Virus record (IMG/VR): IMGVR_UViG_3300046002_005803 | Span: 1 to 64,000 of that record | Length of the DNA stretch: 64,000 bases | Reading direction: 5' to 3' (one strand) | From: a virus | Taxonomy: Duplodnaviria > Heunggongvirae > Uroviricota > Caudoviricetes | The notes under the pieces: model-generated | Seen by the model: only the letters and a program-made list of their open reading frames with translations | What the model was told of the DNA's origin: nothing | Database searches by the model: none | Part shown: one piece after another, positions 1 through 48,846 of the stretch | Numbering within the stretch: the stretch's first letter is position 1 | Layout: every line of letters begins with the position of its first letter | Translations under genes and position numbers: made by a program

Positions 1-158
1 GGGCTTTAACATAAGCGGTAGTACTACCAAAATGCGGTGCACCAAAACTGTCACGACCTTTGCGTTGAGCATATTCTATTTTACCTTGTAACCAATCCTC
101 ATTGGGAACATCTATCCTCAGGGTACCTTCAGTGATGAATTCATTTGATCTCATTATA
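1..158 (-). CDS. Partial CDS (N-terminal 52 codons; the rest lies beyond the window start). N-terminus MRSNEFITEG matches the capsid-targeting-sequence pattern seen on other proteins here. Hypothetical packaged protein.
   Basis: Reverse complement of 1..158 reads ATGAGATCAAATGAATTCATCACTGAAGGT... = MRSNEFITEGTLRIDVPNEDW..., open to the window edge. The N-terminal motif M-R-x-x-E-F-I-x-E is shared with ORFs at 44448, 60514 and 41606. Confidence 0.4.
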
Positions 159-716
159 CTATTTATAGGGTTTGGCCCACCTGGTATTGATCACATTCCA
201 GTTTATGATCTTCCACTGTTCGGTTAAATACTTTTTCTTGTCTGAACCGTAGTCCAATATCCAGGCGTGTTCCCATCGGTCAACTAATAACAATATATCA
301 TCGCGTACTTCATGGTTCTTGATCGTTTTAATCTTACCATCAGTCGCTAAGTATACCCAACCCGATCCTTCTAACTTCATAAATTCAGTTTCAAATTCAG
401 ACTTCATGTTATCATAATCACCATAGTGCTTATTGATGAATCCAAACATAGGGCCGTTGGGTTTGTTATTGTTTCTTACTTCACGGAATTGAGGGAATAA
501 GGTGTTATGCAAAAAAGCACCTGCATAGTTGAAATCTCTGTCACCCTCTTTTTTGTTGTAGCGTTCAGCGTAACCGTGGGCTAGTTTCCCGTAGTGTAGA
601 TCCAATGTATCTTTGGATAGAACGGGACTAACTTCAGCCGGAGTGAAGTTTAGTGGTATAATTTCTATGTCTTGCGGTTTACTCTTTTCCTCAAGTAACT
701 GGATTAAATGTCGCAT
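159..716 (-). CDS. sod: Fe/Mn-type superoxide dismutase with an extra ~18-aa N-terminal extension
   Basis: C-terminal DRWEHAWILDYG matches the Fe/Mn SOD signature D-x-W-E-H-A-Y-Y; GSGWVYL resembles FGSGWAWL; N-terminal region has LHYGKLAHGY (SOD H..KHH-like) and LNFTPAEVSP (resembles FELPALPY..LEP). Residues 1-18 (MRHLIQLLEEKSKPQDIE) precede the normal SOD start. Confidence 0.75.
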   Translation of the reverse strand: MRHLIQLLEEKSKPQDIEIIPLNFTPAEVSPVLSKDTLDLHYGKLAHGYAERYNKKEGDRDFNYAGAFLHNTLFPQFREVRNNNKPNGPMFGFINKHYGDYDNMKSEFETEFMKLEGSGWVYLATDGKIKTIKNHEVRDDILLLVDRWEHAWILDYGSDKKKYLTEQWKIINWNVINTRWAKPYK

Positions 717-2714: not shown

Positions 2715-3545
2715 ATGAAACAATTACTCACACTCCTAATATTGCTGTTCTCGGCACTTGTCTATGCACAATCTCCAACTTCAACAGTACCACTTTCCCC
2801 GGATATAGCCGCAATTAAGAAGAAAAATGTCTTGGTTGTAGCAATGACCAAAAAAGATAACCCTCCCTTCTTTAGTGGGGATGAAAAAAACATACGCGGG
2901 CTAGATGTTGAAATTGCTCAACGCATAGGGGTATTACTTGGGGTGCCTGTGGAATTTCGCAGAGATGCAGAAAGTTTTGCCGATGTAGTTGAACAAGTTA
3001 GGTCTGGTGCCGCAGATGTTGCAGTAAGTAAACTGTCAATCACAGGTCCAAGACTACTTACAGTTCGCTTTAGTGATCCGTACATCAAACTCAAGCAAGC
3101 AATGATTATTAATCGCTTATGGCTAAGTCAACACGGTCAAGGCCGAGAAGTGTATGAAGTGATTAGAACATTTAACGGCAAGATATCTTTCATCCGTAAC
3201 AGTAGTTATGATACATTTGCCCGTGCAAATTTCCCCAAAGCAATATATACTCCCGAAGATAGTTGGGATACGATTGTCAATAATGTAACTAGCGGTGCAA
3301 TTGCTGCTGGATATAGAGATGAGTTTGAAATTAAGAAAATCTCATTTGAAAAGCCTAATGCAGCAATTACTACAAAAACTGTAACTATTTCTGACTCTAT
3401 TGATAATATTGCAGTTGCAGTAAATATTAACTCACCCCAACTACTAAGCATAGTAAACTATGTAATTAAAAATGATTACAGTAATATTGACACTAAAAAG
3501 TTAATGGACCGATACAAGGCTGAAAAGTCTCCTGTAAAGAAATAA
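2715..3545 (+). CDS. Periplasmic solute-binding protein (SBP_bac_3 / amino-acid ABC-type binding fold) with signal peptide
   Basis: N-terminal MKQLLTLLILLFSALVYAQS signal peptide. NVLVVAMTKKDNPPFF..GLDVEIAQRIGVLLGVPVEF...GAADVAVSKLSITGPRLLTVRFSDPY matches the family-3 SBP core. Plus strand, divergent from flanking minus-strand genes. Confidence 0.7.
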   Translation: MKQLLTLLILLFSALVYAQSPTSTVPLSPDIAAIKKKNVLVVAMTKKDNPPFFSGDEKNIRGLDVEIAQRIGVLLGVPVEFRRDAESFADVVEQVRSGAADVAVSKLSITGPRLLTVRFSDPYIKLKQAMIINRLWLSQHGQGREVYEVIRTFNGKISFIRNSSYDTFARANFPKAIYTPEDSWDTIVNNVTSGAIAAGYRDEFEIKKISFEKPNAAITTKTVTISDSIDNIAVAVNINSPQLLSIVNYVIKNDYSNIDTKKLMDRYKAEKSPVKK

Positions 3546-3557
3546 TTAGGAAATAAA

Positions 3558-4844
3558 ATGAAATTTAATTTAAAAAACTTCTTATCTAGTCCGTGGACTA
3601 TTTTAGGATCAATCATAATCGGAGTGTTGGCAGGAGTACATGCACCTGCATTAAGTATGAACTTTGAAAGTGTTGGTGGAATTTACATTAGCTTGCTTAA
3701 AGTTGTTGTAGTACCTTTCTTGCTTGCAACAATTTTAGTTGGGGTTGTTAGTCTTTTACAGAAAGAAGGCAGCGCCGCAATGATACGAAAGATTATCATA
3801 GGCTTCATTGCAAGTATGTTCATTGCCGCAGTGATAGGAGTTGGTACTGTTGCTGTTACCGGCAGTGAAATGACACCTGCAAAACAATCTCAACTTGGTG
3901 CAATTGTCAACGATAAAGATTCTGGTAGTGATCTAAACATCACTCTAACAGAACCCATGCCCAAGGCTCCACATATTGATCCAATACTGATGGCACAAAA
4001 GTTTATTCCGGAAAACATCTTTAACACCCTGGCTGCAGGTGAAAGTTTAAAGATTGTTATCTTTTGTTTGATATTTGGTATTGCACTGGGCAATATTAAA
4101 AGTTCTGGACAAGAAATGCTAGTAGATGTATTGAAAAGTGTACAACAGGCCAGCATCAGTATCTTTAAGTTTTTAAACTACTTTCTACCGTTTGCTTTAT
4201 TAGCAATGATCAGCAGTCAAGTTGGTAAAGTTGGAGTTGGCATATTCTTGACCATGGTTGAGTTTATCATGCAACAAGCAATTGGTGGATTCTTAATTAT
4301 TGCACTAGGTACTGTTGTCATCTGGAAGCGTTCAGGTCTTAGCTTGATGACTGTTATTCGTGAAACCAAAGAAACACTAATTGTTGCGGTTAGCTCACGC
4401 AGTAGTTTAGCATGTATCCCATACGCACAAGAAGCATTGCATAAGTTGAAATTTGACAAAACAGGTGTTGAGTTAACTGTTCCGCTGAGTTTTACAGTTA
4501 ATCGTATTGGTAGTATTGCGTATTATGCAATTGCCACAGTGTTTATTGCCAACATTTATGGGGCTCCAATGGGAGTAACCGGGTTGTTAGTTGTATTGTT
4601 TGGTAGTATTCTTGCTGGGCTAGCCAGTGCAGGTACAACAGGTATTCTTACAGTTGCTACCGTAGCAGTTGTTTGTGATTTATTAAAACTTCCAAGTGAA
4701 GCAGTATTGGTATTGTTGATTGCAGTTGATCCATTAATGGACATGATTCGTACAGCAAGCCATGTACACGGTAATGTGGCTGTGACCGCTTTCGTGTGTG
4801 ATAAAGAGCCAGAATATGGACAAGATCAAAGAGTTACTGCTTAG
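3558..4844 (+). CDS. Dicarboxylate/amino-acid:cation symporter (DAACS / GltP-like) integral membrane protein
   Basis: 428 aa, multiple TM segments. C-terminal IAVDPLMDMIRTASHVHGNVAVTAFV matches the conserved DAACS motif (aiDR..DM.RTavNV.GD). Confidence 0.7.
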   Translation: MKFNLKNFLSSPWTILGSIIIGVLAGVHAPALSMNFESVGGIYISLLKVVVVPFLLATILVGVVSLLQKEGSAAMIRKIIIGFIASMFIAAVIGVGTVAVTGSEMTPAKQSQLGAIVNDKDSGSDLNITLTEPMPKAPHIDPILMAQKFIPENIFNTLAAGESLKIVIFCLIFGIALGNIKSSGQEMLVDVLKSVQQASISIFKFLNYFLPFALLAMISSQVGKVGVGIFLTMVEFIMQQAIGGFLIIALGTVVIWKRSGLSLMTVIRETKETLIVAVSSRSSLACIPYAQEALHKLKFDKTGVELTVPLSFTVNRIGSIAYYAIATVFIANIYGAPMGVTGLLVVLFGSILAGLASAGTTGILTVATVAVVCDLLKLPSEAVLVLLIAVDPLMDMIRTASHVHGNVAVTAFVCDKEPEYGQDQRVTA

Positions 4845-5421
4845 TTTATTAAACTACATAGGTGAAAGTCCATTTCGCTTATTCACGGTTATTCTATTAT
4901 GTGTACTGGGATTTGGCGGATGGATCATATACTCAGAAAAAGATGCGTTTATTGCTAGTTATCGGGCTCAACAGGCCATGCCAAAGATGAATGGCCGATA
5001 TGAGGATGCACATAACTTTTTGCTGAAAAACACCACTGCTGAAATGGTGGCTATATTAGAAGTAAATACACTTTCAAATACAAGAAAAATAGCATTTTTA
5101 TCTACCCGCGGCGCCGGTAGAGATAAAAATCACGATGGTGTTAATGTTGGGTTGTTCTCAAAAAATTATGATAACAACACCGATGTGATCAGTTTAATGT
5201 CGGGTAAAATTCCCTGTAGTTCATATCTCAAACCGCAAAGTTTGATTGGATTTGTATATCGTGATTATGGGGTGAATTTCATGTGCAGAATCAGTGTACC
5301 GGCTGAACCCGGTGTTTTCATTGGACAAATAAGTGTGGGTTGGAAAGAACCCCCAGACAACATAGAAGAAATTCAAACCGCTATGATGATTGCTTCTTCA
5401 ATACTGTATAGTAAGAAATGA
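4816..5421 (+). CDS. Hypothetical membrane-anchored protein
   Basis: ORF track starts at 4798, but the in-frame ATG at 4816 (MDKIKELL...) avoids most overlap with the transporter gene. One N-terminal TM helix. Confidence 0.35.
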   Translation: MDKIKELLLSLLNYIGESPFRLFTVILLCVLGFGGWIIYSEKDAFIASYRAQQAMPKMNGRYEDAHNFLLKNTTAEMVAILEVNTLSNTRKIAFLSTRGAGRDKNHDGVNVGLFSKNYDNNTDVISLMSGKIPCSSYLKPQSLIGFVYRDYGVNFMCRISVPAEPGVFIGQISVGWKEPPDNIEEIQTAMMIASSILYSKK

Positions 5422-5476
5422 TACTTCCTTCTATTATCAGTGTTGTGTTACTAGTGATACTAATATTGGTGTTAAT

Positions 5477-6190
5477 ATGAGCAAGCGGCTTGGTGTATTG
5501 GGTGGTATGGGGCCTGCTGCTTCAGCCGAATTTATGGTAAGACTGATTGCTCAAACTCCGGCAAAGCGTGACCAAGACCATATCCCTGCAATTCTTTGGA
5601 GCGACACCACAGTTCCAGACCGTAGCACTAGTATGCGAAATGGTGATGACAAACCGTTACCCTACCTGTTAGCGGGAATACAAGGATTAATATCAACCGG
5701 TTGTAATATAATTGTTATACCATGCAATACTGCACATTTTTGGTTTAACGAAATGGAAAAACAAGCATCGTGGCATGCTAAAATTGCTCATATTGTAGAT
5801 AGTGTTGCAGATGCATTAAGAGACATAAAAGTTACTAATGCTAAAATAGGCGTCATGGGTACACAAGCAACTATTGAGTTGGGTATGTATCAGTACCGTC
5901 TAAATAAGTTAGGTTGGGATTGTATTGCACCGACTAAAGAAGAAATGGATACACTAGTACAGCCTGCCATTGATTTAATTAAAGCCAATCAGATTGCAGA
6001 AGCATATCCAATGTTAATGACTGTAATTCATAGTCTTATTGACAAAGGAGCAAAAGCAGTGGTATTAGGCTGCACTGAAATACCACTGTCTATTAAAGAA
6101 GATACAGTACAGGATACACCAATAATTAACAGCATTGACAGTTTAGTAAAGTCTGTTATTAAAGAATTCAAAAAGGGGAAACTAACATGA
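5477..6190 (+). CDS. Aspartate racemase (Asp/Glu racemase superfamily)
   Basis: MSKRLGVLGGMGPAASAEFMVRLIAQTPAKRDQDHIPAIL...IIVIPCNTAHFWF has a near-identical motif order to archaeal/bacterial aspartate racemase (IGILGGMGPLAT...TPAKRDQEH...IMPCNTAH). The track ORF starts at 5390, but the ATG at 5477 begins the conserved N-terminus. Confidence 0.8.
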   Translation: MSKRLGVLGGMGPAASAEFMVRLIAQTPAKRDQDHIPAILWSDTTVPDRSTSMRNGDDKPLPYLLAGIQGLISTGCNIIVIPCNTAHFWFNEMEKQASWHAKIAHIVDSVADALRDIKVTNAKIGVMGTQATIELGMYQYRLNKLGWDCIAPTKEEMDTLVQPAIDLIKANQIAEAYPMLMTVIHSLIDKGAKAVVLGCTEIPLSIKEDTVQDTPIINSIDSLVKSVIKEFKKGKLT

Positions 6191-6513
6191 ACTTATCATC
6201 GGTTATATTTGTAATCGCAGTATTTGCCTCAGGTGGTGTTTTCGCACAAGCAAAAAGTCCCGAAGAACTTGTGAATGTGAAAATAGCATGTTATGATACT
6301 GATATACTAATTAAAACATTACTTGATACACATAAAGAGTATCCCATACTTATGGGGATAACCGACGATAACGCAAATTCCACTATGGCAGTTTGGATAA
6401 ACTTTAGAACTAAAACATGGACTATAGTTGCTACTAAGGAAAAGGTAAGCTGTGTTATTGTATCAGGTAAGGGAATAGAATTAGTTCCATATAAAAAGGA
6501 ACCAATGATTTGA
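6187..6513 (+). CDS. Small secreted protein (signal peptide), function unknown
   Basis: MNLSSVIFVIAVFASGGVFAQA signal peptide; stop-start overlaps with both neighbours. Confidence 0.4.
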   Translation: MNLSSVIFVIAVFASGGVFAQAKSPEELVNVKIACYDTDILIKTLLDTHKEYPILMGITDDNANSTMAVWINFRTKTWTIVATKEKVSCVIVSGKGIELVPYKKEPMI

Positions 6514-7247
6514 AGAAAACTGTACTATTTTTGCTATTAGCCGCATCCCAATGTGTAACTTATGCACAATCCAATTTAACGGCTCAAGCATGGTTGATTG
6601 CAGATGCTAATGGTGCAATACTTGAGGGTGTGCATACCACTGAGGTTAGGGCTATTGCTAGTATAACTAAATTAATGACAAGTATGGTTGTATTAGATAG
6701 TGGGCAATCATTAACTGAAACAATTCCCAAGAAACTTTACAATAGAAAATTCACCAGACAAGAATTATTCAATTTAGCAATTGTTAAATCAGACAACAAT
6801 GCTGCTAGAATGTTATGCGAATACTATCCTGGTGGAGTTAAAAAATGTGTTGAAGCAATGAATACAAAAGCTAGTTCATTAGCTATGAATAATAGCCGGT
6901 TTACTGACCCAACTGGGTTGTTTAACACCAATGTAAGTACCGCAGAAGATTTAGTTAAATTAGTAATGGCTGCAAAGAATTACCCAATCATCACTAATGC
7001 AAGTAATACATCAATCATTAAATGGAAAATCAATAAGAAGAAATCTGCGGTCTTTCACAATACTAACAGGCTAGTGGGCAAAGGTGTTGATTTTATAGTA
7101 AGTAAAACAGGATGGATAACTGCCAGTGGCGGATGTATTGTTATGATGTTACAGGGTGAGCAGGGTATTAGGACTGTAATCCTATTAGGTAGCAAGAATA
7201 CACAGACACGCATCCCAGAAGCGTATATGTTATCTAAGCTACATTAA
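6510..7247 (+). CDS. Serine-type D-Ala-D-Ala endopeptidase/carboxypeptidase (peptidase S11, PbpG/PBP7-like), secreted
   Basis: Signal peptide, SxxK (ASITKLMTSMVVLD), SxN (VKSDNNAARML) and KTG (VSKTGWITASG) motifs in the canonical order. Strong resemblance to the E. coli PbpG core. Apparent TTG start at 6510. Confidence 0.75.
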   Translation: MKKTVLFLLLAASQCVTYAQSNLTAQAWLIADANGAILEGVHTTEVRAIASITKLMTSMVVLDSGQSLTETIPKKLYNRKFTRQELFNLAIVKSDNNAARMLCEYYPGGVKKCVEAMNTKASSLAMNNSRFTDPTGLFNTNVSTAEDLVKLVMAAKNYPIITNASNTSIIKWKINKKKSAVFHNTNRLVGKGVDFIVSKTGWITASGGCIVMMLQGEQGIRTVILLGSKNTQTRIPEAYMLSKLH

Positions 7248-8974: not shown

Positions 8975-9184
8975 TTAACACTCTATATCTACATTTTGTC
9001 CCTTACTCCTACCTAAACGCCGATTTGCTTCAGTCCTTAGTTCTTGATTTCTAGTATCTATGCCCTTGATTATTTTTTTAGTATCTTCAACTATTTTTCT
9101 ATACCGTTCTTCCTCGTGCGTTCTTATTACTGCTGCTCGTTGTAACTCAACCAGTTGTTGATGATTAATCCCTTGTACTTTCAT
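8975..9184 (-). CDS. Hypothetical protein
   Basis: ORF only. Confidence 0.3.
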   Translation of the reverse strand: MKVQGINHQQLVELQRAAVIRTHEEERYRKIVEDTKKIIKGIDTRNQELRTEANRRLGRSKGQNVDIEC

Positions 9185-9525
9185 ATTGAAGTTTTAACCT
9201 TTCCATCGTCAAACCATACTACTTCTTTATTGTAACTGACCACTGCAACTTTGCTGTTTTCTTTCGCAAGTTGTGCAAGTTCATCTAGTGTTTTACCTTG
9301 GGCTATAAAGCTATTGGTTTCATGTTCGTAAAGATATAGAACCTCATTGCTATTCTCCACAAAATATTTCTTTACTGCAATTACTCCTGCGTTTTCCTCT
9401 GCTTCAATATCTATGCCTGCTTCTTTTAGTTTGATACGCAGGTGATAATAGATAATTTTAGCCATTATAAACATTCCCAATATGAATGCCAAGACGAGGG
9501 CCAGAAAAGATGAAATATAATCCAT
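9181..9525 (-). CDS. Hypothetical membrane-anchored protein (N-terminal TM helix)
   Basis: MDYISSFLALVLAFILGMFIMAKIIYY hydrophobic N-terminus. Confidence 0.35.
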   Translation of the reverse strand: MDYISSFLALVLAFILGMFIMAKIIYYHLRIKLKEAGIDIEAEENAGVIAVKKYFVENSNEVLYLYEHETNSFIAQGKTLDELAQLAKENSKVAVVSYNKEVVWFDDGKVKTSI

Positions 9526-15934: not shown

Positions 15935-15963
15935 ATTATATACCCAAAATCATTTAATGTCAA
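15935..15963 (-). promoter_or_regulatory. Consensus sigma70 promoter, cassette copy C (-35 overlaps the stop codon of the upstream HD-hydrolase gene)
   Basis: Reverse complement = TTGACAttaaatgattttgggtaTATAAT plus the conserved leader. Confidence 0.6.
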
Positions 15964-16403
15964 CCTAGTCGTGCTTTGATTTCCATGAAGAAAGTATGAT
16001 ATTTTGCCATCCTGGCAATATCCTTTTCTGTAACTCCCTTCAGTCGGCGAATATCGGTGTTGTGTCGCAAATCAGCCATCTTGACCCGCATCGCATCCTC
16101 GCTAGCAAAAACACCTTCCTTGTACTCATCATATGTCTGACCAGGAACTTTAGTCAATGCACGAATGCCAGAGATGACTCGCTCACTGATACCAGCATCA
16201 CGAAGGTCTTTGTAAGTAACCGAAGTATCTTCAATAACATCATGCCCCAGAGCAATGCACATCAATTCCTCGTCATCACTTTTCAGGTAGTGCATAACTT
16301 TCAGTGGATGTAGAATGTACGGGGCACCACCGCGATCAAATGCACCAGCATGGGCGTTAGTAGCAATGACTAGCATTGTTCCAAGCATTTCACCCCTTTT
16401 CAT
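15960..16403 (-). CDS. SpoT/RelA-type HD-domain (p)ppGpp hydrolase (small, Mesh1-like)
   Basis: AHAGAFDRGGAPYILHPLKVMHYL...MCIALGHDVIEDTSVTYKDL...RALTKV aligns with the SpoT hydrolase HD core (AHagQfRksGePYItHPleVA...aaLLHDViEDT.aT...l...V.elVeGVTKl). Confidence 0.7.
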   Translation of the reverse strand: MKRGEMLGTMLVIATNAHAGAFDRGGAPYILHPLKVMHYLKSDDEELMCIALGHDVIEDTSVTYKDLRDAGISERVISGIRALTKVPGQTYDEYKEGVFASEDAMRVKMADLRHNTDIRRLKGVTEKDIARMAKYHTFFMEIKARLG

Positions 16404-16602: not shown

Positions 16603-17190
16603 TTATGGACGCTTTTTCAGTACAGAATCAGACAAACCATATGCTACTGATTCGGCAGCACTCAGAAAATAGTCTCTTTCCATATCCTTAGCTAGTTCTT
16701 CATAAGTTTTACCTACACTATTGTGGTCAACATAGATTTGTGTAAGACTCTTTTTCATAGCTAAAATTTCTTTAACTTGAATTTCCATATCAGTAGCTTG
16801 TCCACGTGCGCCGCCTGAGGGCTGATGAACCATGTGCCGAGCATTTGGTAACATATAACGCTTGCCCTTAGCACCTGCTTGTGCAAGTAAACTTCCCATT
16901 GAGCAGGCCTGACCCATAACAATAGTCATAATATCGGGTTTAATGAATTGCATACAATCATATATGGCCATGCCCGCCGTTACACTTCCACCGGGACTAT
17001 TGATGTAGATAGAAATATCTTTATCTGCTTCACTTTCTAGGTAAAGCAATTGGGCAACAACTAGATTGGCCATTTGATCATGTACTTCACCTTCAAGCAA
17101 AATAACACGGTCACGCAACATGCGGCTGTATATATCATACGACCTTTCACCTTTACTTGTTTGTTCTAAAACCATTGGGACTAGTGACAT
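16603..17190 (-). CDS. clpP: ATP-dependent Clp protease proteolytic subunit ClpP
   Basis: Near-colinear with bacterial ClpP: [28 protein letters not shown]..., catalytic-Ser region [14 protein letters not shown], His region MVHQPSGG, Asp region. Confidence 0.9.
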
Positions 17191-17212
17191 AAGATTCCTT
17201 AAATAAAGTCTT

Positions 17213-17241
17213 ATTGTACTGCAATCTCAAGCAGAAGTCAA
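17213..17241 (-). promoter_or_regulatory. Sigma70-like promoter (TTGACT-17-TACAAT) for clpP
   Basis: Reverse complement = TTGACTtctgcttgagattgcagTACAAT; AAGGA RBS 5 nt before the clpP ATG. Confidence 0.5.
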
Positions 17242-17251
17242 CTGATTGTGG

Positions 17252-17980
17252 TTAGTTACTTATCCAATCTCTGTTACGATACGGTTTACCATACATTGCA
17301 TTTGGTAAATATCGTACAACTTTTTGTTTTACTCGTTTTATGATTGGATGTTCATGGTCATGATTAAATGCTTTTAGATACATTCTCCAACTATTATAAT
17401 TTCTTTTCTTACCGTACTGATCCTCGTCAAGATATTTGATTACATGGTCAGTGCTGTTTCTAAAATTCCATAACAACTCACAAGCAATATTATATCCATA
17501 TGCGTCAATCTCATCACTAGAACCCAAATATTCTTGTTCTTTACGCTGGCGAGTTCTTGGTGCAGTGCTATTATATGAGGGTAATCCGTTGAATTCTCTC
17601 CGGCGATATTGACGCATATGAATTATCTCATGCATTATGGTGTTTGATATAGTGCGACAAGTTCTAATAAAAATTTTATCAGTGATAGATATCAAATCAG
17701 TTTTGTTCTTGTACACCACTATTAATTCAATTGAGTTTTTGTTTTCTTTATCTAGCTGACTGTAGTAGGTGCCGCCAATCCAAGCACGGTTTCTGCCAAC
17801 TTTACTATCTATCAATTTTTTTAATTTGACAGGTATCATCTGTTTTATATGATTACCTAGCAGTCTATGAAACTTTTCCATAGACATTGGGATGTTAATT
17901 ATCTTAGGATGCAATTTCCAAATATATTCAATTAATTCGTAGCGATTGATTGAAGACCAGTCAAAATTGCAAGTTGCCAC
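17252..17980 (-). CDS. Hypothetical protein with HExxH zinc-metallopeptidase motif
   Basis: IMHEIIHMRQ; otherwise unrecognised. Confidence 0.35.
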   Translation of the reverse strand: MATCNFDWSSINRYELIEYIWKLHPKIINIPMSMEKFHRLLGNHIKQMIPVKLKKLIDSKVGRNRAWIGGTYYSQLDKENKNSIELIVVYKNKTDLISITDKIFIRTCRTISNTIMHEIIHMRQYRRREFNGLPSYNSTAPRTRQRKEQEYLGSSDEIDAYGYNIACELLWNFRNSTDHVIKYLDEDQYGKKRNYNSWRMYLKAFNHDHEHPIIKRVKQKVVRYLPNAMYGKPYRNRDWISN

Positions 17981-17993
17981 GCTATATTCCTAA

Positions 17994-19523
17994 TTATTTT
18001 CTCTTAGTGCGGGATCCAGTTTCTCTTGGCTTATTGACAGGATTAACAATATCTTTTGCAGATGTTGTTAATTCGTCTTTGCCTGCATTCTTTTCTCGTT
18101 TTGATCTGATAGTTGGGGTGCTAACTTCTTCATCATCCTTAGGCTTACCTGAACCCTTATCAATTTTGAATGTATAGTTACCTTTTATACCAGTGCTATA
18201 ATATGTTTTACCTGAAGATAGATAAACGCCCTTAATACTTTCACCAGGGTAAACAGTATTGAATTCTTGTAAGGTCCATTTACCTTTGCCTTCACTTGCT
18301 TTAGTATAAACTTGTACCAACGCCCCGTTGTTTAATATATCAGCAGCGGCTGCACTAAATTTTGTCTTGTCGTTCACTTCTTTGGCTGCTTGGTGTGCAA
18401 CCACTGCCATTAAATGATAGTATAAGTTTACATTCTCTGGATCATCGGTTCTGCGTTTTTGTGCTAATTTTAATAGATTTTCACTAAGACCCAATTGCTC
18501 TATATTGTCCATACTAACTGGACCAATTTTCTTAAATGCTCTAATCATTTCAGCATCATCAGGACTGATGACACCATACTGCATACCTAACATTAGTGGT
18601 GAACTTGCTTGTCCGGCAGATCGTATAAGTTTTATCAATGAAACTACTTCACTGTGTTTTTCTAAGAATTTTTTACCATCAGATGTTTCTTCTAGTTGAT
18701 TGATTTGATCAACCAGATTCTTTATGCTGGCAGTAGCACCATTGCCACCTTTTGTGCTAATTAATACACTGTGACCATCACTCGTAGACAAAATGCTATC
18801 ACTTAACCCTGCTGTCTTGCTATCATCAAAACTGATTAATGTTTTCTGAAATGTCCCGCCCAAAAACTTAGCCGCTGCTTCACCTGCGTTACCCGTGTAT
18901 TGACCTTTTTGCAATGCAATTGGCTGTAGTATTTCACAGAAGTAATCACGGAATGCAGTAAAGCTAACTCCTTCAGGAGCATCAAATGTCATGGGTAATG
19001 GTTGACCCATTGCAATATTGTGTGCTACTTTATATAATGGATTGTTAGTTCCCAAACTACTAGCCAGTTGATTCATTAAGCTAGCGATAGTTAAATCAAG
19101 TTTATTAACTAACAAATCTTGTGGACTTAAGCCTGCTTCTGATTTAGCGGCAGCTTTGCTACTGAGCTTATAAGTTGACCCGTCTACAGTAAATGTATTT
19201 GATACTTTGTTGTCAGTTCTGGATGGTTTAATTTCTTGTAGATATTGTCCTATGGTAAAATTACCAAATGAGATTAGTGCGAATCCACCTGTTCGTCCCG
19301 AACGACTGTTTTGCCAAACAATTCCAGGAACTTGTTTTTCAATTTCTGCTAAGGATTGATCTAGTTCTTCGGGTTTGTATTTTCCACCACTTTCTGGGAA
19401 GAATTTAATATCGTTGAATATTGCTTCTTCCCCGTTTTCATTTTTAAAAATCTCGCCGGGTTTACGACCGGCTAAGCCAGTACTTTCAGTTAGTTGTTTA
19501 ATTATATTAATAAATTCACGCAT
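17994..19523 (-). CDS. Hypothetical protein (509 aa); N-terminus MREFINIIKQLTE weakly resembles the capsid-targeting pattern
   Basis: Large ORF with a Lys-rich C-terminus. Confidence 0.35.
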   Translation of the reverse strand: MREFINIIKQLTESTGLAGRKPGEIFKNENGEEAIFNDIKFFPESGGKYKPEELDQSLAEIEKQVPGIVWQNSRSGRTGGFALISFGNFTIGQYLQEIKPSRTDNKVSNTFTVDGSTYKLSSKAAAKSEAGLSPQDLLVNKLDLTIASLMNQLASSLGTNNPLYKVAHNIAMGQPLPMTFDAPEGVSFTAFRDYFCEILQPIALQKGQYTGNAGEAAAKFLGGTFQKTLISFDDSKTAGLSDSILSTSDGHSVLISTKGGNGATASIKNLVDQINQLEETSDGKKFLEKHSEVVSLIKLIRSAGQASSPLMLGMQYGVISPDDAEMIRAFKKIGPVSMDNIEQLGLSENLLKLAQKRRTDDPENVNLYYHLMAVVAHQAAKEVNDKTKFSAAAADILNNGALVQVYTKASEGKGKWTLQEFNTVYPGESIKGVYLSSGKTYYSTGIKGNYTFKIDKGSGKPKDDEEVSTPTIRSKREKNAGKDELTTSAKDIVNPVNKPRETGSRTKRK

Positions 19524-19595
19524 AGTTTAGTATTTATCTATAGAAAAAAATATAAAATTCTTAACCGATAGTAAATAGATGTGAAGGAGAAAATT

Positions 19596-19886
19596 ATGAT
19601 CAAATTTCTAAAAAGTCTATTCGGGATTGAAACCACAGCCCCAGTAGCAACACCCGCACCTATGGTAACAGCCCCTTATAAGATTCCGGAACCAGTAACA
19701 GCAACACCAATTCCATTAGTAGTTGAAGCTGCACCGGTCGTAGTAGCTAAAAAAGCACCTGTCAAAGCTAAAGCACCTGCTAAGCCAAAGGTAGCAAAGC
19801 CTGCCGCGGTTAAAGCACCTGCTAAAGCACCTGCTAAAGCACCTGCTAAAGTACCAAAAAAGCCTAAGATTAGCATCGCCAAGTAA
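19596..19886 (+). CDS. Lys/Ala/Pro-rich histone-H1-like low-complexity protein with AKAP tandem repeats
   Basis: AGGAG RBS 7 nt before the ATG at 19596. C-terminal KKAPVKAKAPAKPKVAKPAAVKAPAKAPAKAPAKVPKKPK, encoded by 3x 12-bp tandem repeats (gcacctgctaaa). Confidence 0.45.
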   Translation: MIKFLKSLFGIETTAPVATPAPMVTAPYKIPEPVTATPIPLVVEAAPVVVAKKAPVKAKAPAKPKVAKPAAVKAPAKAPAKAPAKVPKKPKISIAK

Positions 19887-20584
19887 TGAATACGATAGGG
19901 TTTGACCTAATTAGTGATTTGAATCTATACCCCGAGGATAGTTTCAATTGGGAAGGTAAAGCAACTAGTTTATACTGCATAATAGCAGGAAATATTAGTG
20001 AAGATTTACGCACTATAAAACAAACTCTGTCGCATTTATCTAAATTTTATCAAGGTATATTTTATACTCTGGGTTCGTTGGAATATCATAATACAAGTGA
20101 TATAGTAAAAAGAACGAACGAAATTTATAAGGCTTGTCTTTCAATTAGTAATTTAGCAATAATGCACCACAATGTGGTTGTTGTTGATGGGATAGCAGTT
20201 GTGGGAGCAAATGGATGGTATGGAAATACTATACACGATGAAGAAGCTGAAAGCATACTTGAAGTGCATCGTAATGCAGATATATTATACCTCAGAAATA
20301 CAATAGAACGACTGCAAAAACACCTAGATGTTAAAAAGATTATAGTGGTCACTAACTCAGTTCCCAGTATAGAGTTATACTTTGGAGAACATCCCAGCAC
20401 TATAGATAAGCAACTTAATTTAAATATCGCTTTAGTTGCTGACACCGAAAGCAAAATTTCACATTGGTTATATGGTACATATGAAAAAGTAGTTGACACC
20501 AATATAAACGATATCAACTACATTAACAATAGCAGTTTCAAAAGAAACCCCTATTGGTCTAGGCGAATAGAAATTTCTATTTAA
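19886..20584 (+). CDS. Hypothetical protein (possibly a degenerate metallophosphoesterase-like fold)
   Basis: Weak DxH/GD/GNH-like spacing (ISDLNLY, IIAGNISED, LEYHN); not convincing. Confidence 0.3.
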   Translation: MNTIGFDLISDLNLYPEDSFNWEGKATSLYCIIAGNISEDLRTIKQTLSHLSKFYQGIFYTLGSLEYHNTSDIVKRTNEIYKACLSISNLAIMHHNVVVVDGIAVVGANGWYGNTIHDEEAESILEVHRNADILYLRNTIERLQKHLDVKKIIVVTNSVPSIELYFGEHPSTIDKQLNLNIALVADTESKISHWLYGTYEKVVDTNINDINYINNSSFKRNPYWSRRIEISI

Positions 20585-20886
20585 GCATCAGCCTCTACTT
20601 TAATCTGCAACGGAAAACCTTGACTTCGCGCATCAAGTGTAACTTCAATACCTCGTTGTTCAGCAATCTCGTAGGGTAAAACAGCAACTACCGCACTACC
20701 CTCTTCATGGATATTATGAGTAATTGTTTTCGCTGTATCTTGGTTATAATTAAAGTAATCAATCAAACTACTCACTACAAATTCCATACTAGTAACATTG
20801 TCATTAATATAAATGATTTTGAACAACGGTGGTTCAACTAATGCGAGGTTAGGTTTAATCTTGATTTTTGTTTCTGTTTTAGACAT
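20581..20886 (-). CDS. clpS: ATP-dependent Clp protease adaptor ClpS
   Basis: PPLFKIIYINDNVTSMEFVVSSLIDYF...TITHNIHEEGSAVVAVLPYEIAE is colinear with E. coli ClpS ([28 protein letters not shown]...[22 protein letters not shown]). Confidence 0.8.
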   Translation of the reverse strand: MSKTETKIKIKPNLALVEPPLFKIIYINDNVTSMEFVVSSLIDYFNYNQDTAKTITHNIHEEGSAVVAVLPYEIAEQRGIEVTLDARSQGFPLQIKVEADA

Positions 20887-20901
20887 ATTAGTTACCGGTT
20901 A

Positions 20902-20935
20902 TAATTTATAAAAATGTGCAGCTTTTCAACTGCAC
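20902..20935 (-). terminator. Rho-independent terminator after hsp20
   Basis: GTGCAG-cttttcaa-CTGCAC hairpin followed, in the minus-strand sense, by AUUUUUAU. Confidence 0.45.
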
Positions 20936-20947
20936 ACTGCTATTATA

Positions 20948-21400
20948 CTATTTAGTATGGGATATTACAATTGATCTGGGCTTTTGTTCTTCAGGTACTT
21001 CACGCTTTAGATGAACACTAAGAATACCCAATTCAAGATGTGCATTTACTATCTCAACATGATCAGCAAGTTTGAATTCTCTGCGAAAATCTCTATTACT
21101 GATACCCTTGTGTAGATAGTTAATCTCAGGTAAGTCTTCTTCATTGATAGTATTTTTACCTTCAATAATCAAAAAGTTTTTATCTTTTGTTACTGAAAGG
21201 TTATCAAAACCAAATCCAGCTACTGCTATACTAATCATATATTCGTCCTCAGTAATTTGGACGACATTGTATGGGGGATAGTTTGTGTTAGATTGTTGGG
21301 AATGCATCCTATGTAAATCATCAAAAATAGTATCAAAACCGATACCAAATTTGTGAAGTTGCGGAATGTCAAGGGAACGAAGGGTTAATGTTTTTGTCAT
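20948..21400 (-). CDS. Small heat-shock protein (Hsp20/alpha-crystallin family)
   Basis: Alpha-crystallin-domain pattern PPYNVVQITEDEYMISIAVAGFGFDNLSVTKDKNFLIIEGK. Start moved to the ATG at 21400 (MTKTLTL), which has an AGGAG RBS. Confidence 0.75.
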   Translation of the reverse strand: MTKTLTLRSLDIPQLHKFGIGFDTIFDDLHRMHSQQSNTNYPPYNVVQITEDEYMISIAVAGFGFDNLSVTKDKNFLIIEGKNTINEEDLPEINYLHKGISNRDFRREFKLADHVEIVNAHLELGILSVHLKREVPEEQKPRSIVISHTK

Positions 21401-21500
21401 GTTATTTCTCCTATAAGCAAATATGACTGTGTGAGCCCGACTATCGGCACTCACATATATTTAGTGTATCAGCAATACGCAAAAAATTATACTATTTAGA

Positions 21501-22703
21501 TTAAATCATTGATTTTGGTTCTAAAACTTGCTCTCTTGATATATCTATCTTGGTAATGTTATTTTCTCTGTATTTCTTCGTATTAAACATTGCCGGCATC
21601 AAAACTTTTTCTATTTCAGTGTGTAATCCACGTGCCCCTGTCTTGAGCTTTAAGCAGTTTTCAACTATTTGATCCAATGCACTTGGAGAAAATGTCAACT
21701 TAATATTATCAATACTCAACAGATATTTGTACTGTTCAATATAGTTGTTTTTAACTTCAGTAAGAACTTTGAGTAATTCCTCTTTGTTTAATTCACCAAT
21801 ACTAACTGTAGTAGTGAAACGACCGATAAATTCGGGAATCATTCCATATTTGGTCAAATCATCTGGGGTAACTTCTTTAAGATCACCCTCTGCCTTTTTA
21901 TCTTTGATATCTGCACTAAATCCAATATTAGAACCATTTTTACGATCACTGATCAAGTCTTTCAACCCGACAAATGCACCTCCTGCTATGAATAGGATGT
22001 TTTTTGTATCAATTTCTAACATATCACCACCAGGATGCTTTCTACCACCTGCTGCTGGGATACGACAAATTGTACCTTCTACTAATTTAAGCAATGCTTG
22101 TTGAACACCCTCACCCGACACATCACGGGTAATACTTGCACTTTCACTCTTGCGGGCAATCTTGTCAATTTCATCAACAAACACAATGCCGCGTTCCGCC
22201 AGTCTAGGATCTCCACCAGCAGCATTAACTAACATACTAATCATTGATTCAACATCATCACCCACATAACCAGCTTCTGTCAAACTAGTAGCATCAGTTA
22301 CAACAAAAGGAACTTTAAGATATTTTGCCACTGTCTTTGCCAGCAAAGTTTTACCTGATCCCGTGGGCCCGATCAGTAACACATTGCCCTTTTGAATTTC
22401 TAAGTCTTTTGGCGGATAGGTAATGCGTTTGTAATGATTAGCAATAGCAACACTCAATACCATTTTAGCATTATCTTGACCGATAACATGCTCATCTAAG
22501 TATTCCTTGATATCAGAAGGATCGTATTTAACTTCTTCTTTGGATTGAGTATCAACTACTAAACTATCATCTTCAACCAAGTTATTACATAATACAATAC
22601 AATCGCTGCAAATTGCAACATCTTCACTTACGATAAGTTTTTTAACTTTATCTTTGTGGGTGTTACAAAAAGAACAATGTATTAGTTTATTTTCTGAAGT
22701 CAT
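21501..22703 (-). CDS. clpX: ATP-dependent Clp protease ATP-binding subunit ClpX
   Basis: N-terminal C4 zinc finger ([16 protein letters not shown]...CSDC), Walker [17 protein letters not shown], Walker [11 protein letters not shown], ClpX-specific GYVG pore loop, sensor-2 region. Confidence 0.9.
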
Positions 22704-22758: not shown

Positions 22759-23841
22759 TCATGTAATGTTTTCCAGTAAGTTTGTTGCACTAAAAAAGTT
22801 ATGATGCATAAGTTCTCGGGTTTGAATTATTTTCTCAAAATGCAATGAACCATCCATCTCTGTCATTATAGTACGTATATGCTCAACTAACCTATCTTTA
22901 AATTGTAAGTAACTATTAAAGCTATCTGACCATCTAGAATCATATTTAAATGCACTTGGATACATTTCTGTATAACTTAGTCTATTAGGAACTAATGGAA
23001 ATGCATTAACACATAATGCTTCAAAGCAACTGATACCTAATGTTTCTTGTAAGTTTGCACTAAACACAATTTTACTTTTACCTAACAATGTATGATATTC
23101 ATGTTTAGATAGGTGTTGATCCTGTGCAATAACAAATTTATATTCTGGTAATGCTTCTGCCAAGTCCCTAAAGATATCAAGTTGCTTTTCAGGAGCAATA
23201 CGATGTGGAAACAAAATGATGTTTTCTTTTTCTAAATTGCTATATGTCACTAGCGTATCTTTAAGATACTCCATTGGCCAGCCAGTCTTTACAATTTTCT
23301 TAGACATTATCAATGATTTCTTTGCTTCCGGAAGCAAAAAGCAATCACTCCATAATTGTATATGAAAGTCTGTTGCAAAGTAATTATGATTAATAGCTTC
23401 AAAGAAACTACATTCTGCATGTCTGACCCATTTAGCATCACCGATAATTCGTCCCAAGAAGTCTTGAGGGTCATAACTGCCAGCATGCCATAATCCGTGT
23501 ATAGTCCAGTTGAAGCCTAATAGGTCTGACATATATTTCAGTTGGATCACTGTGGGGTTCCACGCATCTGTAAAGATAAAGTGATCGTCGGGGCCAGTCT
23601 TGCCTTGATTGTGCTGTTCTAAGAACGCACACATTTGAGCACTCTTCCAATAGTTAGTATCGGAGAAGTTTAAGAACGCACCCGGAGTCAGTTGGCTGTT
23701 CTTCTGAACACCATCTACTTGAACCACATTAAAACGGTCGCCTAACTTGTTCTTGAGTAGAGCGGGCACATGACTGTGCCACTGTGCTGTATAGCGAGTC
23801 TCAATAGGCTCCAGCGAGAATATCCATATTGTTGATTTCAA
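22759..23841 (-). CDS. Hypothetical protein, possible GT-B-fold glycosyltransferase
   Basis: C-terminal ILFPHRIAPEKQ and ETLGISCFEALCVNAFPLVPN resemble GT-B donor-binding motifs (E-x7-E). Weak. Confidence 0.3.
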   Translation of the reverse strand: MKSTIWIFSLEPIETRYTAQWHSHVPALLKNKLGDRFNVVQVDGVQKNSQLTPGAFLNFSDTNYWKSAQMCAFLEQHNQGKTGPDDHFIFTDAWNPTVIQLKYMSDLLGFNWTIHGLWHAGSYDPQDFLGRIIGDAKWVRHAECSFFEAINHNYFATDFHIQLWSDCFLLPEAKKSLIMSKKIVKTGWPMEYLKDTLVTYSNLEKENIILFPHRIAPEKQLDIFRDLAEALPEYKFVIAQDQHLSKHEYHTLLGKSKIVFSANLQETLGISCFEALCVNAFPLVPNRLSYTEMYPSAFKYDSRWSDSFNSYLQFKDRLVEHIRTIMTEMDGSLHFEKIIQTRELMHHNFFSATNLLENIT

Positions 23842-26061: not shown

Positions 26062-26856
26062 TCATTTGGTCATCATCAATGCGTTAAAGTTTGAAGGAAC
26101 AACAATTGTCTGCACTTTGCCATTCTTGATACCTTCACTAATGTTCAACATGGCCTGTGCCTGCATGAATGCAATTGAACTACCGCTGTTGTTAGCCAAT
26201 GCTGCCATACGACGGCTTTCAGCCTCAGCAGTCTTAACTTCAACTTCTTTCTGCTTGAGTTCGTTCTTGGCTTTGACTAATTCATTAGCACTTGCCACAA
26301 CTGAATCTGCTGGTACTACATTACGAATCAACACTTGACTGATCATAATGCTACCATCCAGCTTTTCTTCAGTAAGATTGCGAACAATTTCTTCCTTGAT
26401 GAAGTTTTCCATATCGCTACGAGCATCTGCCATGTCCAGGGCCTCGTACTTACGGGCTGCCTTGTAGATGGCATTACGAGCATTTTGCACAATGTAATTG
26501 TACATCACATAAGTATCACCCTTGAATTCAGTGTGGAAGCTCTTGTTCTTAGTAGAATATAGCTCTGCTACTTGTGCAGGGTTGATGTTATAGACAACCA
26601 CAGCATCAAAGTCTTTCATTGTTGAGTTGTCTTTGGCAACGGGAGTCATATCATTCAACGGGACATTGACATCTTTAATCGGGAATGTAAGTACATCTCC
26701 GATCAATACTTGATTGAACGAGCCGGGCAAGAGTTCACCACTTTGTACCTGCTTGTCAAATCCCACACGCACACCCACCTCACCGGTTTCAATACGAGTG
26801 CAACCTGTTGCCAATACTGCCGCAGCAAGAACGGAGAGAGTTAAAATACGCTTCAT
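26062..26856 (-). CDS. SPFH/band-7 (stomatin/HflKC-like) lipoprotein
   Basis: Signal peptide plus lipobox LATGC. ETGEVGVRVGF...PGSFNQVLIGDVLTFPIKDVNV...DFDAVVVYNINP follows the SPFH-domain pattern. Confidence 0.65.
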   Translation of the reverse strand: MKRILTLSVLAAAVLATGCTRIETGEVGVRVGFDKQVQSGELLPGSFNQVLIGDVLTFPIKDVNVPLNDMTPVAKDNSTMKDFDAVVVYNINPAQVAELYSTKNKSFHTEFKGDTYVMYNYIVQNARNAIYKAARKYEALDMADARSDMENFIKEEIVRNLTEEKLDGSIMISQVLIRNVVPADSVVASANELVKAKNELKQKEVEVKTAEAESRRMAALANNSGSSIAFMQAQAMLNISEGIKNGKVQTIVVPSNFNALMMTK

Positions 26857-47997: not shown

Positions 47998-48846
47998 TTA
48001 GGTATTCCATGCGTTTTTAAAGAGTGGCACCTGAAGTCTATCACTATAACGCCAGCCTAACCGCATTGCTTCAAGTGCAACTGTTTTGGCATTCATGTTA
48101 TATACACTTTCAACTCCGCCACATGGCATCAAGTAAGCATTACCCCTAAATCCGTGAGTACGATATTGATTAACTGCTTCTTGTGCTTCTTCTACATCTT
48201 GTCTATTGGCCACAACAAACTTCAGATATGTATGACCTACTTGACTATATTCATCAATAATTTCAGGACATATTGCTTCTTCCCACTTCTCGCCACTGAT
48301 ACCAAGTTTAGGACTAACACTAAATGTTATTGCACCTCTAGAACGATTGATGGCCCATTGATGCAAGTAGGTTTTCAATTGATGTTGCAACGGTTGAGTG
48401 CCATTTGTTTCAAATGTTAGTTCTTGTAAACCCGTCATGTTTTCATGTGAAAGTAAATCAATATAACTGCGTTGCCAACCTAGCAAAGGTTCACCCCCTG
48501 TAATAACAAGATGTTCTTCCATCCAACGCTTGTGCGGAAGCATTGTCATAATACTTTCAACAATACTATCAGTAGTACGTATTGGACTGAAATCTTTGAA
48601 ACGAGGATCCCAACTTGCATAACTATCGCAACCTGTACTAACTAATGGTAGTTGGGTGTAAGCCGTGTAGTAATGCACACGGGCTGCGATATCTTCTACT
48701 TCACTACTTATTTCGCCCCTTGGCATACCAAACCCTGCACATTTGAAGTTGCAACCAAATGTTCGTAGGAAAATACTTGGTACTCCGATATATCGGCCTT
48801 CTCCTTGAATACTATAAAATAGTTCACTAATTTTTAATTTGCTCAT
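47998..48846 (-). CDS. queE: 7-carboxy-7-deazaguanine synthase QueE (radical SAM)
   Basis: N-terminal ELFYSIQGEGRYIGVPSIFLRTFGCNFKCAGFG matches the QueE signature (F.S.QGEG...G.P..F.R..GCN..C). Confidence 0.7.
   Translation of the reverse strand: MSKLKISELFYSIQGEGRYIGVPSIFLRTFGCNFKCAGFGMPRGEISSEVEDIAARVHYYTAYTQLPLVSTGCDSYASWDPRFKDFSPIRTTDSIVESIMTMLPHKRWMEEHLVITGGEPLLGWQRSYIDLLSHENMTGLQELTFETNGTQPLQHQLKTYLHQWAINRSRGAITFSVSPKLGISGEKWEEAICPEIIDEYSQVGHTYLKFVVANRQDVEEAQEAVNQYRTHGFRGNAYLMPCGGVESVYNMNAKTVALEAMRLGWRYSDRLQVPLFKNAWNT

Follow-up and report, generated by a model that had tools for sequence, protein, structure and literature searches.

A locus at positions 16,603 to 22,703 of a 64,000-nucleotide stretch of the virus record IMGVR_UViG_3300046002_005803 (Caudoviricetes; positions 1 to 64,000 of the record, hereafter the window) encodes the peptidase ClpP, the unfoldase ClpX, the N-degron adaptor ClpS, and the small heat-shock protein (sHsp) Hsp20. 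Judged from its sequence and that of its relatives, the region probably forms the central part of a jumbo-phage Clp proteolysis system that is functional and was inherited by vertical descent, and does not represent a recent capture of host genes. As originally predicted, all four genes are present in the table of open reading frames, on the minus strand, and their products score above the curated Pfam cutoffs (ClpP: PF00574, 257 bits, 1e-76; ClpS: PF02617, 79.5 bits, cutoff 23; Hsp20: PF00011, 52.3 bits, cutoff 20.8, 6.7e-14). ClpX and ClpP also exceed those of NCBIfam (ClpX: equivalog NF003745, 512 bits, cutoff 359), and ClpX carries the zf-C4_ClpX domain (PF06689, 45 bits). Among PHROGs, Hsp20 matches phrog_432 (1.3e-39). 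About 80 related loci in IMG/VR share the order ClpX–(bS21)–Hsp20–ClpS–[o232, convergent]–variable genes–ClpP, with 3.4–7.9 kb between ClpX and ClpP; the order ClpX–(bS21)–Hsp20–ClpS–...–ClpP is also found on a 345-kb contig from ENA.

The unfoldase served by ClpS adaptors is ClpA (or ClpC) and not ClpX, and the 64-kb window contains neither a ClpA nor a Clp_N sequence; within the coordinates given by the original prediction, the module is therefore not "complete". ClpA homologs are nevertheless widespread in the lineage, as documented by Sinorhizobium phage Phosso, Agrobacterium phage Atu_ph07, Pseudomonas phage PA5oct, and the phages GAP32 and 121Q. In Phosso and Atu_ph07, clpA is located 11–18 kb upstream of the polymerase gene. 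When the relatives in IMG/VR are followed outward from homologs of the last genes of the window, ClpA is encountered 8–10 kb further on. At least nine contigs that bear the ClpX–ClpS–ClpP block also encode the ClpA of this clade, at a distance of 38–60 kb from the block (e.g., IMGVR_UViG_3300023174_000038, 348.7 kb, and IMGVR_UViG_3300027969_000039, 303 kb). By extrapolation from these relatives, the clpA of the present phage is probably situated at about 71–74 kb, i.e., some 7–10 kb beyond the right end of the window. The ClpA proteins of the clade comprise 742–759 amino acids and possess a Clp_N domain (38 bits), two AAA+ modules, and an IGF loop.

The residues by which ClpS should bind N-degrons and ClpA are present in the window and conserved among 78 sequences of the clade. 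The N-degron pocket consists of N28, D29, T32, M34, and H60, which correspond to N34, D35, T38, M40, and H66 of E. coli ClpS (PMC8346999); the asparagine, aspartate, threonine, and histidine are invariant (78/78), and the methionine is found in 72 of the 78 sequences. The residues contacting the N-domain of ClpA, which are E79, E82, and K84 in E. coli (PMC12493166), are represented by E73, E76, and R78; both glutamates are invariant, and position 78 is lysine or arginine. An N-terminal extension of 19 residues ends in P19–P20, matching the flexible extension with a Pro-Pro junction described for ClpS (PMC9663308). The closest sequence matches of known structure are ClpS2 of A. tumefaciens (4YJM), ClpS of Caulobacter (3DNJ), and ClpS of E. 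coli (1MBU). On the side of ClpA, the equivalents of E28, T81, and R86 of the E. coli protein, which contact E79 and E82 of ClpS (PMC12493166), are kept in all 79 sequences of the clade. Because both faces of the interface are conserved, the evidence favors a cognate ClpA–ClpS pair of the phage over an orphan adaptor that parasitizes the ClpA of the host.

The strongest competing explanation places the main action of ClpS, and possibly of ClpX, on the host side: ClpS would dock on ClpA or ClpC of the host and redirect or inhibit host ClpAP, and ClpX and ClpP would mix with host subunits, so that the block would be a device for host takeover and not a self-contained protease of the phage. Such a role was proposed by Iyer et al., who suggested that phage ClpS brings targets to host ClpAP (PMC7824862), and it is compatible with the generic nature of the conserved ClpS residues in contact with ClpA. 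Cross-docking between phage and host subunits is plausible also for ClpP, because the protein shares 62% of its residues over its full length with E. coli ClpP and has retained most of the pocket that accepts the IGF/IGL loops (six of eight residues are identical; Y60 is replaced by S and F112 by Y). However, contigs of the clade that bear the block also carry a gene for a ClpA with a Clp_N domain, and neither ClpS nor this ClpA varies in its interface residues, as expected of a cognate phage pair. We therefore consider host machinery unlikely as the main target, even though an action on host ClpA or ClpP may coexist with a cognate phage system and the two readings are not mutually exclusive.

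A second alternative concerns ClpP, which might be a prohead (head-maturation) protease unrelated to ClpX and ClpS. This is how the databases would have it: the best PHROG of the protein is phrog_94 ("head maturation protease"), and the homologs in PA5oct and Atu_ph07 carry the same label in RefSeq. However, ClpP passes the cutoff of the cellular model (PRK00277, 299 bits, cutoff 249) and fails that of the model for ClpP-like head-maturation proteases (Clp_rel_HeadMat, 104 bits, cutoff 120). Its full-length similarity to the E. coli enzyme includes the N-terminal LVPMV gating loop. Moreover, the protein is not fused to a scaffold or capsid domain, and the genes in its neighborhood are involved in replication and metabolism and not in head formation, which makes a role in head maturation very unlikely.

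The phage context of the locus is documented by genes for a family B DNA polymerase, an ATP-dependent DNA ligase, and an endolysin in the same window, and by the synteny among its relatives, which bears out the earlier claim that the genes are phage-encoded. A megablast search with the Clp locus found no match among the phages in GenBank. Since there is no relative at the nucleotide level in that collection, the lineage was placed via its proteins. The polymerase shares 42–48% identity with its counterparts in Phosso, Atu_ph07, Vibrio phage 2.275.O, XaC1, and Rak2-like jumbo phages. More than 2,600 clusters in a metagenomic protein collection match ClpS (E ≤ 1e-5); the best 120 of them are 83–99% identical to the protein in the window and stem from contigs of up to 345 kb. 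At least 249 relatives of ClpX, on contigs of up to 524 kb, are present in IMG/VR. Together, the kinship of the polymerase, the ClpS clusters, and the ClpX relatives identify the window, on sequence grounds, as a piece of an abundant, uncultured clade of jumbo phages. The longest of these contigs (IMGVR_UViG_3300027749_002876; 524,565 bp) contains two copies of ClpA and three homologs of the gene at positions 62333–63484 of the window; the duplicate copies suggest a concatenated or chimeric assembly of related genomes and not a true 524-kb phage. One ClpS cluster (P0068; 89% identity) is labeled in NCBI as belonging to a metagenome-assembled genome of "Candidatus Nanopelagicus sp."; it is probably a phage contig that was binned with a freshwater actinobacterium and may give a hint at the habitat or host.

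The original prediction had raised the question whether the components are derived from a host or belong to a phage clade, which was addressed for ClpX. In a neighbor-joining tree of 14 phage and 81 bacterial sequences (363 columns), the ClpX proteins of jumbo phages form a single group (bootstrap 86/100), in which the freshwater clade has Phosso and Atu_ph07 as its sister group (bootstrap 80). Sampling of about 600 bacterial species yielded no ClpX above 53% identity, and the top matches are scattered over many phyla. Together with the synteny, the phylogeny of ClpX indicates a single ancient acquisition followed by vertical descent, without capture from a host. A recent island of host origin, bacterial contamination, or a chimeric assembly would be at odds not only with this phylogeny but also with the occurrence of the same synteny in hundreds of independent metagenomic contigs and three cultured phage lineages, and with the uniform G+C content across the locus (0.34–0.40). 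Some "phage" records in GenBank that include ClpS–ClpA or ClpX–ClpP do look bacterial (Acinetobacter MD-2021a, Ralstonia YO084_1, and short contigs of Listeria and Staphylococcus), but for the present locus such an origin is extremely improbable. ClpS is generally rare among phages; it is found in about 20 of 50,697 phage records, several of which look like bacterial fragments.

On alignment to the E. coli proteins, the enzymes appear to be active and not pseudo-enzymes. The catalytic triad of ClpP (S97/H122/D173) aligns with S97/H122/D171 of E. coli and is invariant in all 62 sequences of the clade. ClpX possesses the zinc-binding cysteines (C10/C13/C32/C35), the Walker A lysine (K118) and Walker B residues (D177–E178), the GYVG (145–148), RKH (221–223), and IGF (260–262) loops, the arginine finger (R295), and the sensor-2 arginine (R358), which are invariant or nearly so in 85 sequences of the clade. 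Since the triad, the Walker motifs, and the pore and docking loops are all intact and do not vary within the clade, and since no supporting point was found, it is hardly credible that the proteins are catalytically dead decoys that poison the Clp complexes of the host. All four genes are under strong purifying selection, with pairwise ratios of nonsynonymous to synonymous substitution rates (dN/dS) among clade orthologs of about 0.07 (clpP), 0.09 (clpX), 0.10 (clpS), and 0.21 (hsp20); these values are approximate because dS is near saturation (about 1.4–1.6), which has to be counted among the points that speak against a functional, vertically inherited system.

Other points also weigh against it. 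ClpS remains below all equivalog cutoffs of NCBIfam (best score, 67.7 bits vs. 149), and so does Hsp20, whose score of 124 bits for IbpA falls short of the cutoff of 212; the latter protein is thus IbpA-like without being an equivalog, and both count as divergent family members. At the position corresponding to D36 of E. coli, ClpS is variable (N/E/D/T), and E23 of ClpA, the partner of ClpS K84, is mostly replaced by Q in the clade. The presence of clpA in this particular genome is deduced from its relatives, and the gene was not seen in the window. The tree of ClpX was built by neighbor joining, with bacterial sequences taken from among the matches listed, and long-branch attraction of the fast-evolving phage sequences is possible.

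The features of the locus are listed in Table 1. Hsp20 has its closest matches of known structure in 7CK4 and AgsA (4ZJA), and its C-terminus (...RSIVISHTK) contains the I-x-I/V motif. The ATG at 21400 is the better start of hsp20, because it is preceded at a distance of 7 nucleotides (nt) by an AGGAG ribosome-binding site and because the orthologs comprise 148 amino acids; the GTG at 21454 merely opens the maximal reading frame.

Table 1. Genes and candidate regulatory elements in the Clp locus (positions refer to the 64-kb window; aa, amino acids; UTR, untranslated region)
Feature	Position	Strand	Description
clpP	16603..17190	−	195 aa; cellular-type ClpP peptidase (MEROPS S14), no propeptide
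Sigma70-like promoter candidate for clpP	17213..17241	−	TTGACT-17-TACAAT, 22 nt upstream of clpP; 10/12 matches
o242	17252..17980	−	242 aa; HEIIH (HExxH-like) motif; between o509 and clpP; no family match
o509	17994..19523	−	Variable filler; found in a subset of clade loci only
o101	19581..19886	+	Variable filler; no family match
o232	19886..20584	+	232 aa, unknown; convergent with clpS, stop codons overlap by 4 nt
Candidate terminator	20489..20521	−	Hairpin with a 13-bp stem and a trailing TTTTT within the 3' end of o232, 60 nt downstream of clpS (terminator scan)
clpS	20581..20886	−	101 aa; N-degron adaptor for ClpA
hsp20–clpS hairpin and T-run	20906..20938	−	Candidate intrinsic terminator/attenuator and/or 5'-UTR stem-loop of clpS
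TATAAT box	20942..20947	−	−10-like element for clpS, directly after the hsp20 stop; 10/12 matches (promoter scan)
hsp20	20948..21400	−	150 aa; IbpA/AgsA-like small heat-shock protein, C-terminal I-V-I motif
TTGTAA hexamer	20970..20965	−	−35-like element for clpS, within the 3' end of hsp20
clpX–hsp20 spacer	21401..21500	−	TAGTATAAT at 21494–21486 and imperfect GTGAG...CTCAC hairpin; position of bS21 in most relatives
clpX	21501..22703	−	400 aa; AAA+ unfoldase, N-terminal C4 zinc finger

Among the regulatory elements is a hairpin between hsp20 and clpS. In the window, it folds at about 20938–20913 (−16.6 kcal/mol; z = −3.35) and is followed by TTTTT. The RNAalifold consensus of 46 distinct spacers shows that it is conserved as a stem of 9–13 base pairs, with a constant base (GTGTG/CACAC) and a covarying distal part. 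Double compensatory changes in five of eight pairs argue for a selected RNA structure. The original prediction took this element as a terminator of hsp20, which is consistent with the conserved hairpin and the T-run in the window; however, no more than 18 of the 50 spacers compared have a T-run. Given this scarcity and the essentially invariant TA(A/G)TATAAT immediately 5' of the hairpin in the 46 spacers, the element may not be a plain terminator: it may act as a terminator or attenuator on the clpX–hsp20 transcript, as a stem-loop in the 5'-UTR of a clpS with its own promoter, or in both ways. No further copy of the hairpin occurs in the window. The combination of TATAAT with a GTG...CAC hairpin was rejected as a repeated regulatory unit (three hairpins vs. 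about 1.1 in shuffled sequences, only one of them with TATAAT), as was TAGTATAAT as a repeated phage promoter motif (three copies vs. 1.2 expected; not significant).

Similar reservations apply to the promoter that had been assigned to clpP. The sigma70-like site is present, but the region has hardly more sites of this kind than expected (40 vs. 31), and no more than about half of the relatives have a comparable element at this position upstream of clpP. In the nearest relatives, the position is taken by TTGCAA-N17-TATACT; the pattern TTGACN-16..18-TANNNT is matched by 13 of 47 distinct clpP upstream regions, and one subclade lacks any such site. Because of the near-background density and the patchy occurrence of the element, the assignment of a separate promoter to clpP is plausible but weak.

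The locus is also less contiguous than originally predicted. While clpX, hsp20, and clpS are adjacent, the stretch between clpS and clpP is occupied by four genes without family assignment, of which two are on the plus strand (19581–20584) and two on the minus strand (17252–19523). All four (o509, o242, o232, and o101) were rejected as parts of the module: none of them matches Pfam, NCBIfam, PHROGs, or PDB even at permissive thresholds, and none has a homolog beside clpS in PA5oct, Atu_ph07, or Phosso. For these reasons, the genes are treated as filler. Three of these genes vary among the relatives or are missing from them. By contrast, o232, which has neither a family in Pfam, NCBIfam, or PHROGs nor a relative of solved structure in PDB, is conserved in 76 loci of the clade (46–82% identity). 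The product of o242, which occurs in only a few relatives (loci L008, L012–L015, and L022), could be a zincin-like metallopeptidase, as suggested by its HExxH-like motif. A glycosyltransferase-like gene upstream of clpX (22759–23841) is unique to the window among the compared loci.

In most loci of the clade (L001, positions 9181–9402, and most of L007–L086), a gene for the ribosomal protein bS21 is located between clpX and hsp20 and overlaps the stop codon of clpX. The gene is absent from the corresponding spacer of the window (21401–21500), and there is no copy elsewhere in the 64 kb, which places the window among a minority of clade members that have lost bS21 after clpX. A gene of translation initiation persistently follows clpX: bS21 in the clade and in PA5oct (170955–171161), and initiation factor 3 (IF3) in Atu_ph07 (244–747) and Phosso (382308; bS21 at 389675).

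If the components act as their conserved residues suggest, ClpX hexamers would dock by their IGF loops on tetradecamers of phage ClpP to form ClpXP, and a phage ClpA, predicted to be encoded about 40–60 kb away and just outside the window, would dock on the same ClpP by an IGF loop of its own. ClpS would bind the N-domain of ClpA, with E73, E76, and K/R78 facing E28, T81, and R86 of ClpA, and insert its 19-residue extension into the ClpA pore. It would thereby deliver proteins with bulky hydrophobic N-termini and turn ClpAP away from other substrates, while the sHsp would hold proteins that are unfolding or aggregating. The clpX and hsp20 genes are presumably transcribed as one unit, clpS from its own −10 box ahead of the conserved hairpin, and clpP separately. 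Such a system might provide quality control and selective turnover of host and phage proteins under the control of the phage during the long infection by a large virus. The results have no bearing on the earlier suggestion that processed fragments of the CTS protein might be among the targets.

A more far-reaching scenario, which we offer tentatively and consider unlikely, would combine the ClpX–(bS21/IF3)–sHsp–ClpS block with the ClpA and ClpP of the phage to a host-independent proteolysis system. A co-evolved ClpA–ClpS N-degron pathway would act on substrates chosen by the phage, such as host proteins or phage proteins in which cleavage by phage proteases has laid bare new N-termini. The system would be deployed in concert with the remodeling of translation initiation by the phage, as suggested by the persistent linkage to bS21 and IF3, and the hairpin between hsp20 and clpS would be the switch that sets the level of ClpS relative to ClpX and the sHsp.

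Several side observations concern the wider neighborhood. A stand-alone HD-domain protein of 147 amino acids is encoded just downstream of clpP (15960–16403, minus strand). It resembles the hydrolase domain of SpoT/RelA (phrog_990, 5.6e-56; N-terminal region of TIGR00691, 50 bits) and is a candidate (p)ppGpp hydrolase. An SPFH/Band-7 protein (stomatin/HflK/C-like) is encoded 3.4 kb upstream of clpX (26062–26856, minus strand); the presence of FtsH and of a membrane protein labeled "FtsH-interacting" in the corresponding region of PA5oct hints that the protease-related neighborhood may be wider. A GTP cyclohydrolase I and a radical-SAM protein in the window (47998–48846 and 50597–51271, minus strand) are possibly part of a pathway of the 7-deazaguanine/queuosine type; in PA5oct, GTP cyclohydrolase I and QueD are encoded directly upstream of clpX. 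A cassette at 2715–7247 (plus strand), which is unusual for a phage, comprises a family-3 solute-binding protein, a Na+:dicarboxylate/amino-acid symporter (SDF; 218 bits), an open reading frame of unknown function, an Asp/Glu racemase, and an S11 D-Ala-D-Ala carboxypeptidase, which suggests an auxiliary metabolism related to amino acid uptake and peptidoglycan. A Fe/Mn superoxide dismutase is encoded at 159–716 (minus strand). A search for tmRNA, tRNA, and Rfam families in the window found none.

The full Clp set (ClpX, ClpA, ClpS, and ClpP) with an sHsp is not confined to a few cultured jumbo phages: it is an ancient block under strong purifying selection that a very abundant uncultured clade carries as well. 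This makes PA5oct and Atu_ph07 good experimental models for the question of how regulated proteolysis and an N-degron adaptor of its own may benefit a phage. The results also correct two recurring errors of annotation, namely that a cellular-type ClpP is called a "head maturation protease" and that ClpS is treated as an orphan adaptor for host ClpA.

The original prediction also held that the locus goes beyond the occasional lone ClpP of large phages, but comparable sets are already in the literature. Atu_ph07 has been published with ClpX, ClpA, ClpB, ClpP, ClpS, and DnaJ (PMC6102473), and a comparative survey reported ClpP, ClpS, ClpA, ClpX, and Hsp20 in jumbo phages, including the Hsp20 of Atu_ph07 (PMC7824862). 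Because the ordered block is already present in PA5oct, Atu_ph07, and Phosso, the locus is not new in kind. By its gene content and order, it is a compacted version of the documented Clp block of jumbo phages, ClpX–(bS21/IF3)–sHsp–ClpS, of which it retains the order and strand of ClpX, sHsp, and ClpS, without a bS21 after clpX. What is modestly new is the depth and strength with which this order is conserved, the evidence for a cognate ClpA–ClpS pair, and the covarying hairpin between hsp20 and clpS.

The gene order is shared with Pseudomonas phage vB_PaeM_PA5oct (MK797984; Arenbergviridae), where ClpX, sHsp, ClpS, and then ClpP are encoded on one strand. The identities are 42% for ClpX, 29% for ClpS, 29% for Hsp20, and 49% for ClpP, and the ClpP of PA5oct has been detected by electrospray ionization tandem mass spectrometry, according to its GenBank record. 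In PA5oct, clpX is followed by bS21, which overlaps its stop codon, two extra genes, sHsp, and ClpS; ClpP is encoded about 8 kb further on, separated from ClpS by FtsH, a DNA ligase, and other genes, and DnaJ–ClpA about 21 kb further on, so that ClpA lies within 26 kb. By contrast, the window lacks bS21, contains other filler genes, and has its ClpA expected about 50 kb away. The two phages also differ in host and habitat, the window representing an uncultured metagenomic clade.

The closest cultured relatives are Agrobacterium phage Atu_ph07 and Sinorhizobium phage Phosso (470–490 kb), with identities of 47–48% for the polymerase and 64–68% for ClpP. Both encode ClpX, ClpA, ClpP, ClpS, and sHsp, and have the order ClpX ... 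sHsp–ClpS in common with the window. However, their block extends over about 5–17 kb, with IF3 after clpX and a thymidine kinase (TK) between sHsp and ClpS (Atu_ph07: ClpX–IF3 ... sHsp–TK–ClpS, spanning the origin of the record; Phosso: ClpX–IF3 ... bS21 ... sHsp–TK–ClpS), and ClpP is encoded far away; Atu_ph07 has ClpB and DnaJ in addition. The block of the window is more compact (6 kb) and has clpP within it.

In domain architecture and in every functional residue, the proteins agree with those of the bacterial ClpXP and ClpAPS systems, with identities to the E. coli proteins of 62% for ClpP, 49% for ClpX, and 34% for ClpS. The arrangement of the genes is different: in bacteria, clpA is immediately preceded by clpS, and clpX by clpP, whereas in the window clpS is linked to clpX and hsp20, and clpA is distant. 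In addition, the ClpP of the window has no propeptide, and the N-terminal extension of ClpS is six residues shorter. Lak megaphages and Bacillus phage G also encode Clp components (a lone ClpP, ClpP-like prohead proteases, or ClpX with ClpP) but, unlike the window, no ClpS.

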